64,000 nt of DNA from Escherichia coli (GTDB lineage: Bacteria > Pseudomonadota > Gammaproteobacteria > Enterobacterales > Enterobacteriaceae), in NCBI RefSeq assembly GCF_009931435.1, contig NZ_CP043414.1. One strand, 5' to 3'. The notes under the pieces were generated by a model. It did no database searches and was not told the origin of the DNA. It worked only from the letters and a program-made list of their open reading frames with translations. The position numbers and the translations under genes were made by a program. Positions 1 through 59,719 of the stretch are shown here, in pieces (the first letter of the stretch is position 1; each line of letters starts with the position of its first letter).

Positions 1-2858
<2,858 letters not shown>

Positions 2859-2865
2859 CTCTCAA

Positions 2866-2985
2866 TTACCGGATGCGATCCGGGCAACAAGTCGGAAACG
2901 ATTTGTAGGCCTGATAAGACGCGACAGCGTCGCATCAGGCATTGATTGCCGGATGCGGCGTATAACGCCTTATCCAGCCTACATT
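2866..2985. repeat. REP/BIME cluster (repetitive extragenic palindromes) downstream of acs
   Basis: gccggatgcggcg...cgccttatccggcctac and gtaggcctgataagacgcg...gcgtcgcatcaggc motifs in inverted copies. Confidence 0.7.
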
Positions 2986-3070
2986 CGGCGAGGGTTACCT
3001 GGGCGTTAACCCGCTCCCATAAGGGCGCGGGAATTAAAACAATCCCTACATTACCTCTGGAGAATCTGTG

Positions 3071-5031
<1,961 letters not shown>

Positions 5032-53728: not shown

Positions 53729-55825
53729 TTAGCGGAAATTGACGCTTCGGTCGCTGGTCATGTCGTACAACTGGAACTTACGCCCAAGTTGCTGACCACC
53801 GTCACGCGTCAGCGGCGTCCAGCCAATCGCCGCACGGCTGCGTGTCGGGCCAGACGAGAAGAGATCCAACGGTACAGAGACATACACGCCTTTGGTGAAG
53901 TCCCCTTCGCCGTACTCCTCTTTCGAAACATTCGTGATCGTGGCATACCCACCCACTACCACGCCGCTGTCAAAGCGTTTGGCGATTTCCAGCGTGCCGC
54001 CTTTATCCCCTGCCAGATACTGCCCGACGCTGGCTTTCACTAACACATCCTGAGCGAAAGATGGCGTCCAGTAGGCGGTCAAATGACCAGTTTTCACGCT
54101 GTAATCGGTGAATTTCATCATATCTTTCGCACTACGCCAGTCGCGCTGTTTAACGTAGTTAGCATCCAGACCAAACGCCCAGTTGCTATCCAGCGGGCGA
54201 TACAATACTTCTGCCCCCGCGCCGCCAAACATGGTTTCGAGATAACCACCGTAGACCTGACCGTAGAAGCCGTTGCCCAGATGCTGGAAATAGTTGGCTT
54301 GCAGGTTATTCACATAGACATCATTCTGCACATACTCACGCACATGGGTACGCACGCGCGGTAAGTGCGAGTCCTGCGGCGGATTGGTGTAGTTAAACTT
54401 GTCGTAGTTGTTGGCAAGGTTAGCAAACAGGCTGCCGGTGGTCAGCAGATGGTCCGTCAGCCACAAATCTGCCGTTCCCATCACGCCCAGCTGATACATG
54501 TAAAAGTTTTCCGGGCCACCGACCGACTGGTTTAGCACCGGATCGATATGAAAATCAAAGCGTGATTTGTCGATATACCAGCCCTGCTCGGTGGACTTCG
54601 GAACCACTGGCTCGACGCGTTTTTGCGCCAGCTTCGTTTCGTGGCCCAACGGCTCTCCGGCAAGATGATTTTTCAGGCTGGCGACATCGGTTTCCGTCGT
54701 CACCTGCGGCATGTTAAGGCGATTTTCTGTAACGCGGATCGTCTTGATCCCATCCGGCAGATCGTTCATCACGATCCGATTAGCACGGATGATCCCTTCG
54801 CGCGAATCACGATATTTCACCTGCTCACCGGTGACGTACAGCGTATCGCCTTTCGTCTGGATCTGCGGATCGGCCAGTCCGGCGTTGTATTTCAACAGCG
54901 TTAACTGATTCGCCACCACCGAATGCTGCAAAATGGCATCCTGCGGCTGCGGTTGATATTGCGGACGGGCGTTATCGTTGTAGGACGGGCGTAGATCGTT
55001 AAAGTTGGTACGCAGCGTGACGCCAAACATAAAGGTGTTACCGCGTTCATAGCTAAGGTTAACGTCGGCCCAATCGGTAACGCGATAAATCGCCCCGACG
55101 TTAAACTTACTTTTTTGCTCCAGCTTCCCGGCAAAATCCTGCTGATAATTATTACCTTCATACTCCAGTTTCAGACGCAGCGGCTGCCAGGGCGTCTGGT
55201 ATTCCACGCCGCCAAACAGTGAGGCCGGACCGTGGAACATCTGGCTGCCGTCGATAGATCCCGCTTGTTTGTAGCTGTTATCGCGATAGCAATATTTGTC
55301 ACTGGCCGAACAGAGCGGATTTTTCACGTTACCGCTGGTGCCCAGATATCCCCAGCCCAGGCCGAGCGTAAAATCGAATGGCCCCCAGGCTTTGCTGGCG
55401 ACAAGATATTCCGCATCGAACAGCCCCGTACCGCCGATATCCCGCGCACCAACCGCCACCTGTGGCAGCCAGTAACTCTCTTCCCATAAACGCAGTTTGA
55501 GATCGAAGGCTTTATCTTTATACGTTTGATCACCAGAGAACGCTTCGACGCTGCTGTACTGCCGAGTGCGCACGTCGGTGTAGCGTAGCGTTGTTTCCAA
55601 CCACGGGAAGAGTTGCACTGAAGCTGAGTAATAACGGTACTGATCGTTATCGCGATAGTTCAGACTCAACTCCCCTTCCCGCGCCATGCGCGCAGTAGGT
55701 GTTTGTAATAATCCTACGCCACCGAAATCCGATTGCGACGGACCAATGGGCGCAGGATATGTTTCGCCGTAGCAAGCCGTGCTAATGCCCAGCGCCAGTA
55801 AACTAAGCAGATGTCTTTTTTTCAT
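53729..55825 (-). CDS. yjbH: YjbH (GfcD/YmcA-like outer-membrane beta-barrel lipoprotein of the yjbEFGH polysaccharide locus), 698 aa
   Basis: Signal peptide [20 protein letters not shown]; beta-rich 698-aa protein ending …NFR; synteny with K-12 yjbEFGH. Confidence 0.85.
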
Positions 55826-56562
55826 TATTGCGGTATCCGCTGCGTCAGAGTCTGAAGAATGTCAGCGTTAAGGGCATCAGGCGTCTCACTCCAGACGGAG
55901 TCCGCGAGGCCAACATAAATAATGCTGCCGGGCATCGGCTCTACGTGACGCTTGTTCCAGTAAGCCACCGGAGTTTTTTGCGTGCGTCCATCCGGATAAA
56001 CGACCCACGCGTAGCTGCGATCCGCACCGCTGAGCAGGCTCTGGTCAGAGAGATAGCTCGCCACGTCGCGACCGGGAGTGAATGGCTGATTGCCAGGACG
56101 GCTGATAAGCCCGAACAACGTGACCGTGGACGGTGGTGGTCCGACCCACAGCGTGTAGTTGCCCTGCAACGGCGGGTTACCGCGTTCGGCAACGCGCACG
56201 ATATCAGGATCAAGATTGATTTTTTGTCTGCCCGTCACCTTCAACGCCTGAATTTGCTGGCGTAAGGCGTTAATGGCGGCGGCATCGTCGGTGCTGGATT
56301 CTGAGGCCAGTTCTGCCAGCCTTGTCAGCAACGCCTGCTGCTGCCGTAATGCCGCCGCCGTTGCCAGCTCTTCGCTAATCACCGCTCCGGGCCACCAACT
56401 GTTTGCCAGCCGCGGTTGGCCTACCAGATCGATTAAATGCTCTGCGCCCGTTAGCGTTTTGGCCTCATTGCTGCCATTACTGAACACTTTGACGGTGCCT
56501 GCCGCAAAGACCGATGACGCTCCCACGCTCATAATCAACGCAGCAATAGTTTGTTTAATCAT
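55825..56562 (-). CDS. yjbG: YjbG (GfcC-like periplasmic protein), about 245 aa
   Basis: Signal peptide [20 protein letters not shown]; start set at MIKQT (track ORF extends to 56658); stop overlaps yjbH start. Confidence 0.8.
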
Positions 56563-57197
56563 TGTTTTGCCGCCTTGATGAGAGTGGTTTTCACCGGGAA
56601 ATAATCCGCGCCGAGATACTGTTCCGACTGGCGAATTTGCCCTTCGCTGTCGATCCAATAGCGGTTATGCCAGCGAGCCTGGTCGGTGGAGACTTCTTCG
56701 TCCAGCACACGAACCGGAGTTTCATCGCTACCGACTTTGACAGTATCGGTGCCATCCCATTTGAAAACCGAGCGTGCGGTGGCGTAGCGCACCTGCTGGT
56801 ACTCGGTCCAGCCCATCGTGCGCGTCCAGGTTGCGCCATCAACAATTTGTGCGGGTTTTATCAGCGGGTCGGCGGCAAGGTTATTCACTTCAATCAGGTT
56901 GTCGCCGCCAAGCAAAGTCTTCACCAGACGACCATGTTGTGTGACGAGAGTGGCTTGATCCTGAGTAACCCATTTTTGTTGTCCGTCTTCAGCGAAGGCC
57001 AGCACCACAAACAACTGCGGCCCGCCATTAAGCTGCATGTACTGGCTGGCGTAGGGCATATTTTGAATATCATCGTCCGTCAGCTGTACGCCTGGCGTAC
57101 CGAACAGACTGTCCCACAGTGAATTGCCCAGCTCTTTAGTCGTGGCTGAACAAGCCTGTAATAGCAGGCAGATAAGAATGAGTGCAGGTCGCTTCAC
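56559..57197 (-). CDS. yjbF: YjbF (GfcB-like lipoprotein), about 212 aa
   Basis: Lipoprotein signal (V)KRPALILICLLLQACS; GTG start assumed; 4-bp overlap with yjbG start. Confidence 0.8.
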   Translation of the reverse strand: MKRPALILICLLLQACSATTKELGNSLWDSLFGTPGVQLTDDDIQNMPYASQYMQLNGGPQLFVVLAFAEDGQQKWVTQDQATLVTQHGRLVKTLLGGDNLIEVNNLAADPLIKPAQIVDGATWTRTMGWTEYQQVRYATARSVFKWDGTDTVKVGSDETPVRVLDEEVSTDQARWHNRYWIDSEGQIRQSEQYLGADYFPVKTTLIKAAKQ

Positions 57198-57311
57198 GAC
57201 TCTTCTCCAGAGGGGCAGAATAACCACACCGGAGTGTGGTTATGGTTAATCCCCGTCATACTTCAAGCCACAGATGCGATGACTCGAATTATTTTAGGGA
57301 TACATACTTTA

Positions 57312-57554
57312 TTACTGAGTACTGGTGGTCGTGGTTGTGGTGGTCCCGGTATTAGAACCATCACCGCCACCGGTTGCCGCGAGCGCGACACCCACCGCCG
57401 AGCTTACGGTGCTAACGCTGGTTGCGGAGGAGCTACCCGCCGAAACCGACGTTGCTGCCGCCCCTGCCGCTTCGCCCACCTGTACAGGTGCAGCCCACGC
57501 AGAAGTCGCCGCAAGCGCAGATATGGCAAAAATGCCATACAGAACTTTTTTCAT
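57312..57554 (-). CDS. yjbE: YjbE (small secreted Thr/Ala/Ser-rich protein), 80 aa
   Basis: Signal peptide [21 protein letters not shown]; low-complexity mature part ending …[19 protein letters not shown]. Confidence 0.8.
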
Positions 57555-57961
57555 AACAATTTCCCTTCATTGAATGAATGGAGATTTACCCAAAAACATT
57601 TCGGGCGGGATCGAGTATACACAACTAAAGCATGCGAATTACGGCGTGGGGAATTAGTGATGGGGTTTTAAGATAATTGGAATGAATATCAAATATAAGT
57701 TTCAACTTATATATAAATAATATTTAAAATCAAAAATTTAAAACAAAATCAAAAATAATTAACCTACGTATTTTCCGAAATCAATCATGATTAAAAATCT
57801 ATTTTAGGATTAACCTCACGGTATGATTTTCGTTAAATCACAGACAAGGGGATTTATCTGATAAAACAATGCCGACTTATAGTCGGCATTGTTATTAAGG
57901 TTATTTAATCAATCCTGCTATGTATTAATTGCCGAATATGATGTACATATCGGCATCGACC

Positions 57962-58040
<79 letters not shown>

Positions 58041-58069
58041 ATATCATCGGCATCAGGCTCGCTCGATGA

Positions 58070-59719
58070 TTAACCGCGCCACGCTTTATAGCGGTTAATC
58101 AGACCATTGGTCGAGCTATCGTGGCTGCTGATTTCTTTATCATCTTTCAGCTCTGGCAGAATACGGTTCGCCAGCTGTTTACCCAGCTCCACGCCCCACT
58201 GGTCGAAGGTGAAGATGTTCAGGATCACGCCCTGAGTAAAGATTTTGTGCTCATACAGCGCAATCAACGCCCCCAGGCTGAACGGAGTGATTTCACGCAG
58301 CAGGATGGAGTTGGTTGGGCGATTACCTTCGAACACTTTGAACGGTACCACGTAGTCAAGCGTTGCCGGATCTTTACCCTGATCGCGATATTCCTGCTCA
58401 ACCACTTCGCGGGATTTACCAAACGCCAGCGCTTCGGTCTGAGCGAAGAAGTTAGACAGCAGTTTCTGGTGATGATCAGAGAGCGGGTTATGGGTGATAG
58501 CCGGGGCGATGAAATCGCATGGCACCATCTTCGTACCCTGGTGGATCAGCTGGTAGAACGCGTGCTGACCGTTAGTGCCTGGTTCACCCCAGATAATCGG
58601 GCCAGTCTGGTAATCCACAACGTTACCGTTACGGTCTACATACTTACCATTGGACTCCATATTGCCCTGCTGGAAGTACGCTGCGAAACGGTGCATATAC
58701 TGGTCGTACGGCAGAATCGCTTCAGTTTCCGCGCCAAAGAAATTGTTGTACCAGATGCCGATCAGCGCCAGCAGTACAGGCAGGTTTTTCTCTGCAGGTG
58801 TGGTGGAGAAATGCTTGTCCATCGCGTGTGCGCCGGAAAGCAGTTCAACGAAGTTATCAAAGCCGATGGAGAGAACAATCGACAGGCCAATCGCTGACCA
58901 CAAAGAGTAACGACCGCCGACCCAGTCCCAAAACTCGAACATGTTAGCGGTATCAATACCAAACTCACCAACGGCTTTGGCATTGGTTGAGAGCGCAGCA
59001 AAGTGTTTCGCAACGTGTTGTTCATCACCTGCCGCTTTCAGGAACCAGTCACGCGCGCTATGGGCGTTGGTCATGGTTTCCTGAGTGGTGAAGGTTTTAG
59101 ATGCTACCAGGAACAGCGTGGTTTCCGGGTTCACTTTTTTCAGCACTTCCGCGATGTGAGTTCCATCGACGTTAGAAACAAAGTGCATGTTCAGGTGATT
59201 TTTGTACGGACGCAGTGCTTCGGTCACCATGTACGGGCCGAGGTCAGAACCGCCGATACCGATGTTCACCACGTCGGTGATTGCTTTGCCGGTATAACCC
59301 TTCCACTCACCGGAAATAATCGCTTCCGAGAAGGTTTTCATCTTCTCCAGCACGGCGTTAACATCCGGCATGACATCTTTGCCATCAACCAGAATCGGGG
59401 TATTGCTACGGTTACGCAACGCTACGTGCAGTACGGCGCGGTTTTCAGTGCGGTTGATCTTCTCGCCAGAGAACATCGACTTAATCGCGCCCGCCAGATC
59501 GCACTCTTTCGCCAGATCTTGTAATTTCGCCAGCGTCTCTTCAGTGATGCGGTTTTTGGAGTAATCCACCAGCATCTGATCGTCGAAGGTTGCAGAGAAC
59601 TTAGAAAAACGATCGCCGTCTTTAGCAAAAAGATCGGCGATCGTAACGTCTTTCATTTCATCGAAGTGTTTCTGTAGTGCCTGCCAGGCCGCGGTCTGCG
59701 TTGGATTGATGTTTTTCAT
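58070..59719 (-). CDS. pgi: Glucose-6-phosphate isomerase, 549 aa
   Basis: [58 protein letters not shown]…; track ORF starts 2 codons upstream. Confidence 0.97.

Follow-up and report, generated by a model that had tools for sequence, protein, structure and literature searches.

Conservation of a seven-threonine C-terminal tail in YjbE, a predicted exported and disordered protein encoded by the head gene of the yjbEFGH operon

The threonine run at the C-terminus of YjbE does not behave as a variable spacer: it keeps a length of seven residues across many genera and in homologs with only 45-60% sequence identity. The gene under study, located in a 64,000-nucleotide stretch of Escherichia coli DNA (the whole of which is hereinafter referred to as the window), is yjbE, the head gene of the Rcs-induced yjbEFGH operon. 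The gene, the protein family and the operon are already annotated and published, so this identification is not itself new. Within a widespread export system, YjbE and its counterpart GfcA are the components about which least is understood. We favor, with moderate confidence in the explanation as a whole, a scenario in which YjbE is a constrained, exported, disordered protein that would be produced in hairpin-driven excess and act as a cargo or partner of YjbF, YjbG and YjbH, with a tail that would be either recognized by this machinery or joined to a polysaccharide.

The yjbE gene and its product

The open reading frame at 57312..57554 in the ORF list lies on the minus strand and comprises 80 codons and a stop codon. 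The following features of the gene and its product are referred to below:

57312..57554, minus strand: yjbE coding sequence (ORF list, Pfam PF11106 and RefSeq annotation)
57492..57554, minus strand: predicted Sec-type signal peptide, residues 1-21 (two Lys, hydrophobic core and A-x-A site, read from the sequence)
57369..57425, minus strand: Gly/Ala/Val-rich central segment, residues 44-62 (19-residue hydropathy mean 1.24)
57315..57365, minus strand: C-terminal motif G64-Q80, GDGSNTG-T7-STQ (from tail conservation among species and family representatives)
57324..57344, minus strand: seven-Thr run, T71-T77 (ACC ACC ACA ACC ACG ACC ACC, codon table)

Residues 1-79 of YjbE match positions 1-79 of the Pfam profile PF11106 (YjbE family) with a score of 113.7 bits (cut-off 27.9, E = 5e-33), and the matching stretch is annotated as yjbE in 5,420 of the 5,426 complete E. 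coli genomes. The K-12 protein (b4026; 'exopolysaccharide production protein YjbE' in Pfam) resembles the window copy in position (pgi-yjbEFGH-psiE) and length; 79 of the 80 residues are identical, the single replacement being S32 in K-12 to A32 in the window, and there are seven DNA differences. The window allele is uncommon: a single one of the 5,420 E. coli genomes exceeds 97.5% DNA identity to it. The YjbE protein of Escherichia whittamii is identical to that of the window. The 20-kb surroundings of yjbE are at best 98.8% identical to E. coli genomes, and the segment 53729-62115 shows ~96% identity to K-12, ~94% to E. whittamii and 98.9% to the goat isolate R32_14_1F. An uncommon Escherichia lineage is the apparent source of the window.

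A sequence-only reading of the window had described YjbE as a secreted protein that, once mature, consists almost entirely of Ala, Thr, Ser, Gly and Val, and both descriptions are borne out; the minus-strand orientation was no part of that reading. The predicted Sec signal peptide, with its A-x-A site, is conserved across the family; its core has a 12-residue Kyte-Doolittle mean of 2.2, the predicted cleavage falls between AWA and AP, and the AAP junction is kept throughout the 22-member family alignment. Cleavage at this site would release a mature protein of 59 amino acids (~5.2 kDa, pI ~4) with the composition T13 A12 S11 G9 V7, in which the five residues named above account for 52 of 59 positions (88%) and Ser or Thr for 24 of 59. 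Toward the C-terminus, a Gly-rich linker leads into the poly-Thr tail. The Thr run, which had been put at about eight residues, consists of seven consecutive Thr (T71-T77), and Thr makes up nine of the last 12 residues; runs of at least seven Thr arose in 234 of 1,000,000 composition shuffles of mature YjbE. At the DNA level, the Thr-codon repeat is imperfect, the longest perfect stretch being (ACC)2 or two hexamer units.

Two other readings of this locus were rejected. A non-coding or leader element is ruled out by the dN/dS of 0.055 (see below) and the Pfam match, and an antisense ORF at 57325-57573 on the plus strand is taken as a by-product of GC-rich codons on the coding strand.

Operon neighbors and the gfc cluster

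The three genes that follow yjbE in the operon are:

56559..57197, minus strand: yjbF, predicted lipoprotein (lipobox LLQAC), GfcB paralog (PF11102, E = 7e-64)
55825..56562, minus strand: yjbG, periplasmic GfcC-family protein (PF20616 and PF06251, the GfcC N and C domains)
53729..55825, minus strand: yjbH, outer-membrane protein with two beta-barrels, GfcD paralog (PF06082, E = 3e-270)

These Pfam matches support the earlier placement of yjbE at the head of yjbEFGH, followed by genes for a lipoprotein, a periplasmic protein and an outer-membrane barrel. The RefSeq names in matching E. coli genomes agree (yjbE, yjbF, yjbG, yjbH), and the start of yjbF is given as in the 212-aa RefSeq annotation. 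The operon is preceded by pgi, with lysC beyond it, and followed by psiE; the gene order E-F-G-H is kept in 54 species.

The paralogy with the gfc cluster, also proposed from the sequence alone, is supported for three of the four genes, namely, yjbF/gfcB, yjbG/gfcC and yjbH/gfcD. YjbF matches PDB entry 2IN5 (YmcC/GfcB) with E = 3e-43, YjbG matches 3P42 (GfcC) with E = 6e-55, and YjbH is 65% identical to K-12 GfcD; for YjbE and YjbH, the PDB holds no sequence relative. A double-barrel model of YjbH/GfcD has been published (PMC8346858, PMC9603273), in which the N-terminal barrel is FapF-like and the C-terminal one PgaA-like (PMC9603273, PMC8346858), and GfcB, GfcC and GfcD have been reported to interact (PMC8592465). 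The polysaccharide associated with yjbEFGH has never been chemically defined (PMC11494523).

The fourth pair consists of YjbE and GfcA (YmcD). Like YjbE, GfcA leads its operon (gfcABCDE-etp-etk, group 4 capsule), ahead of the paralogs GfcB, GfcC and GfcD, and is made up of a signal peptide ending in AAP, a Gly/Ala/Val-rich core and then a tail. The tail of GfcA, ...GDGGSHNTSTTTSTTR, resembles that of YjbE, the shared pattern being ...GDG(G)S.NT.TTT..ST(T)R/Q. Unlike YjbE, GfcA is 101 aa long, contains an additional Thr-rich N-terminal stretch, has a truly hydrophobic core (2.16 vs 1.24) and carries just three consecutive Thr in the tail. A BLASTP comparison of the two proteins gave E = 65, and hhalign with a 22-sequence YjbE-family profile aligned the signal peptide only (residues 1-26); GfcA has no Pfam match. 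A collinear local alignment of YjbE and GfcA reached z values of 2.2-4.0 over composition-preserving shuffles. GfcA appears to be the positional counterpart and is a possible remote homolog of YjbE. In the literature, GfcA and YjbE are described as natively unstructured or uncharacterized (PMC8346858, PMC11494523).

Conservation of the tail across species and distant homologs

Syntenic loci were fetched with YjbF, one genome per species, which yielded 54 Enterobacteriaceae loci, with a readable YjbE in 53. They were used instead of a word-indexed protein search with YjbE, which gave almost only frameshifted or truncated variants. The clustered protein collection contains aberrant variants only, without an exact match to the K-12, window or 82-aa YjbE, and because the canonical protein is absent from it, word-indexed searches miss the YjbE family.

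Of the 53 species for which yjbE could be read, 46 have exactly seven Thr, and the Kluyvera group (seven loci) carries T5-S-T3 in place of the seven-Thr run. The 17-residue tail, tabulated for 47 species, is encoded by 40 DNA versions, and the peptide is identical in 31 species and differs at the last residue only (Q to R) in five more; among the Thr codons of the tail in these 47 species, the third positions alone are shuffled. Relative to the window, the median dN/dS of mature YjbE is 0.055, compared with 0.069 for YjbF, 0.122 for YjbG and 0.049 for YjbH. Purifying selection on the tail motif and on several regularly spaced Gly/Ala positions is as strong as on the YjbH barrel. The median dS is 0.66-0.81 for yjbE vs 1.3-1.75 for yjbF, yjbG and yjbH, that is, about half, which suggests a codon-usage or RNA-level constraint on yjbE and could reflect codon bias resulting from high expression.

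Thirty members of the YjbE family were detected when 1.84 billion cluster representatives were searched exhaustively with HMMER. Among these are 12 full-length representatives with identity of 45-62%. The signal peptide, the AAP..G[ED]AAG motif, a G[DN]G-type tail and glycines at regular spacing are common to all of them, and a run of exactly seven Thr is found in seven, with tails of the form G[DN]G-x-x-T-G-T7. Given that tract length and peptide are held across genera and in distant homologs, the Thr run, one of the best conserved portions of the locus across genera, is a constrained functional motif and not a hypervariable tract. That a low-complexity tail is as constrained as a folded domain argues against a contingency locus and in favor of a specific role.

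A conserved hairpin between yjbE and yjbF

The spacer downstream of yjbE contains one additional feature:

57220..57243, minus strand: hairpin in the yjbE-yjbF spacer, AUAACCACAC-UCCG-GUGUGGUUAU (predicted 10-bp stem, 4-nt loop)

Twenty other Enterobacteriaceae species share the core of this hairpin, UAACCACAC-loop-GUGUGGUUAU, with both arms unchanged; the loop is UUCG in 18 of them and UCCG or UACG in the remaining two. The surrounding spacer varies in length (58-117 nt) and diverges in sequence. Because the stem never varies, the hairpin draws no support from covariation. The U-rich tail on its 3' side is mostly UUAUUUUG or UUAUUUC in other genera, and the tail in the window, UUAUUCUG, is weak; a consensus terminator scan of 57150-58100 did not call the hairpin. 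In the same interval, a sigma-70 promoter scan found none, and no RcsAB box (TAAGAATATTCCTA, at most 3 mismatches) was found upstream of yjbE.

The level of yjbE mRNA exceeds that of yjbFGH mRNA according to a passage in PMC8208086 that cites Ferrieres 2007, and yjbE serves widely as a reporter of Rcs activity with strong induction (PMC6941253). A conserved hairpin in this position is in keeping with the published excess of yjbE mRNA. We infer that it may act as an attenuator or a 3' stabilizer that would provide for an excess of YjbE over the machinery. The papA and fimA operons encode the major subunit first, with a hairpin after the first gene and a higher level of the first-gene mRNA. In the yjb operon, too, the first gene encodes a small exported protein, which would be abundant, and a conserved stem-loop separates this gene from those of the machinery; unlike PapA and FimA, YjbE is not a pilin.

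Two Rfam matches were detected in the upstream region. The pgi-yjbE spacer contains a match to the enterobacterial sRNA STnc430 (57751-57900, plus strand; 72.6 bits, gathering score 47), oriented divergently from yjbE, and a match to naRNA4, a REP-derived nucleoid-associated RNA, lies just downstream of pgi (57966-58037, minus strand; 80 bits, gathering score 59.5).

Structure models and the proposed role of YjbE

Mature YjbE was modeled with AlphaFold2 joined by flexible linkers to YjbF and YjbG, and to YjbH, using paired alignments of the syntenic loci and gfc paralogs (21 and 32 rows, mostly at 70% identity or more). A search for YjbH homologs deepened the alignment little, the relatives all being at least 72% identical among the 120 matches listed. 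The partners are folded in the models, with pLDDT of 85-97 for YjbF and YjbG and 70-90 for YjbH, which forms two strand-rich barrel regions. YjbE has pLDDT of 22-30 and no secondary structure in both fused models. Docking of YjbE onto YjbF and YjbG or onto YjbH was observed in neither fusion model and, given the shallow alignments, this absence is weak negative evidence that neither supports nor excludes a complex. Mature YjbE is predicted to be a low-complexity, disordered protein, in agreement with the published description of GfcA (PMC8346858).

Under the explanation that we favor, the hairpin directly after yjbE would keep yjbE mRNA above yjbFGH mRNA, and YjbE would be made in excess. YjbE would then be an abundant peptide partner or cargo of YjbF (a LolA-like lipoprotein), YjbG (GfcC-like) and YjbH, in which the FapF-like N-terminal barrel would be of the amyloid or peptide exporter type and the PgaA-like C-terminal barrel of the polysaccharide porin type. 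YjbE would leave the cell as an unfolded chain and reach the cell surface, with the Thr tail serving either as the element that the machinery recognizes or as the point of attachment to the exported polysaccharide. Two ideas in the literature are relevant here: passage of an amyloid-like polypeptide through the first barrel was raised as a speculation in PMC9603273, and Larson et al. (PMC8592465) speculated that GfcA is an O-antigen carrier exported by GfcD. YjbE fits both.

The Fap amyloid system, in which FapC and FapB pass via the FapF barrel, is similar to yjb in that a small unfolded exported polypeptide is encoded together with an outer-membrane barrel. This likeness, for which the barrel assignment is taken from the literature, points to a possible way of working and not to membership in the Fap system: Fap repeats are absent from YjbE, which shares no sequence similarity with them and is not known to form fibers. 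A more specific version of the favored explanation, which we consider unlikely, is that the YjbE family and, by analogy, GfcA provide the YjbH/GfcD double barrel with its missing protein substrate. The protein, abundant and disordered, would be exported unfolded via the FapF-like barrel, the invariant GDGSNTG-T7 tail would be a site of recognition or of covalent attachment for the polysaccharide that exits the adjacent PgaA-like barrel, and the hairpin would set a high peptide-to-machine ratio. If this is true, YjbE and GfcA would be the anchor that has long been sought for group 4-type capsules at the cell surface. The conserved and easily mutated 17-residue tail offers an experimental handle on group 4 capsule anchoring and on the yjbEFGH polymer.

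A rather unlikely alternative, which overlaps with the cargo model and is not mutually exclusive with it, is that the Thr tail is an O-glycosylation acceptor, as the sequence-only reading had also suggested. Sugars linked to Und-PP (O-antigen or another polymer) would be transferred onto Thr and Ser of periplasmic YjbE, and the resulting glycopeptide would be exported or anchored via YjbH. The abundance of Ser and Thr in the mature protein, the conservation of a tail that is predicted to be disordered and exported, and the connection of yjbEFGH with exopolysaccharide production are all compatible with such a modification. The idea is not new, having been put forward in print by Larson et al. 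for the paralog GfcA (PMC8592465). However, neither the operon nor the adjacent genes (pgi, psiE) include a glycosyltransferase or oligosaccharyltransferase gene, and no account of glycosylated YjbE or GfcA was found in the literature searched. Moreover, the strict count of seven Thr exceeds the needs of a generic acceptor patch, and some family members are orphans in unrelated contexts, as described next.

Divergent members of the YjbE family

A close relative at 77% identity is embedded in an ordinary yjbEFGH operon. Six divergent members (at most 62% identity) are stand-alone genes in unrelated neighborhoods, with no yjbFGH within the DNA examined (flanks of 6 kb in the longer contigs and of smaller size in the short contigs). 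These orphans imply that the YjbE family can exist without an adjacent export machine.

The divergent members also bear on another interpretation, that the YjbE family consists of small single-pass membrane or glycine-zipper-like peptides. In such peptides, the core would reside in the membrane with the Thr tail on its far side, their action on the envelope would be their own, and the linkage with yjbFGH would be secondary. We consider this unlikely. The hydropathy of the 19-residue core is 1.9-2.2, in the transmembrane range, in the distant members and GfcA; GfcA carries the RefSeq name 'threonine-rich inner membrane protein'; many family members end in Arg or Lys; and the orphans have no yjbFGH neighbors. 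But the cores of the window YjbE and all operon-linked YjbE of the Enterobacteriaceae are far less hydrophobic (1.1-1.24, under the usual transmembrane threshold), the AlphaFold models of YjbE contain no helix, and the E-F-G-H synteny is maintained across the 54 species.

Tract length among E. coli genomes

To count tract lengths, short tract-centered queries and synthetic length variants were compared with the 5,426 complete E. coli genomes, instead of whole-gene identity bands, which are unable to tell SNPs from indels. Seven Thr are encoded in ~5,315 genomes (~98% of the 5,420). The 9-Thr allele (82 aa, WP_021575443.1) occurs in 85 genomes (1.6%). Its DNA comes in two versions: in 30 genomes, it is the K-12 tract after a tandem duplication of ACCACA, and in 55 genomes, several of which are named ST361 or '361', one tract base and one flanking base differ from that version. 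The 5-Thr allele (78 aa), with 6 nt lost, is found in ~18 genomes, and the 12-Thr allele (85 aa), with a 15-nt tandem duplication, in one, an O100:H21 pig isolate. No genome matched a version of the K-12 tract with one codon added or removed at 99% identity or more among the 5,426. All length alleles differ by multiples of 3 nt, in steps of 6 or 15 nt, and the in-frame nature of these changes precludes on/off switching. Related assemblies among those listed, such as ST361/'361', share the same tract allele; the length alleles appear to be lineage-linked.

The sequence-only reading had raised the Thr tract as a site of length variation to be examined by comparing strains. The part that stands is that alleles of 5, 9 and 12 Thr exist, so the length is not identical in all strains; but these alleles combined make up only ~2% of the 5,420 genomes, with ~98% sharing seven Thr. 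The view of the tract as a slipped-strand contingency locus, in which frequent length change would vary a surface structure, is largely refuted and highly improbable: although the 5-, 9- and 12-Thr alleles differ by whole 6- or 15-nt repeat units, the repeat is imperfect, with no unit perfectly repeated more than twice, one length is common to nearly all genomes, related assemblies share an allele, and the seven-Thr run recurs in 46 species and in distant homologs. The natural 5-, 9- and 12-Thr alleles are ready-made test variants.

Several disrupted or tail-less copies of yjbE were encountered. The gene is frameshifted and annotated as a pseudogene in one genome, is interrupted by IS1 in E. 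coli EC25 (2165-3184 of its locus), and encodes a 74-aa variant with an altered C-terminus and without the Thr tail in a Shigella dysenteriae record. In view of these copies, occasional loss of the gene seems to be tolerated. One of the 5,420 tract-region matches is on a record labeled as a plasmid.
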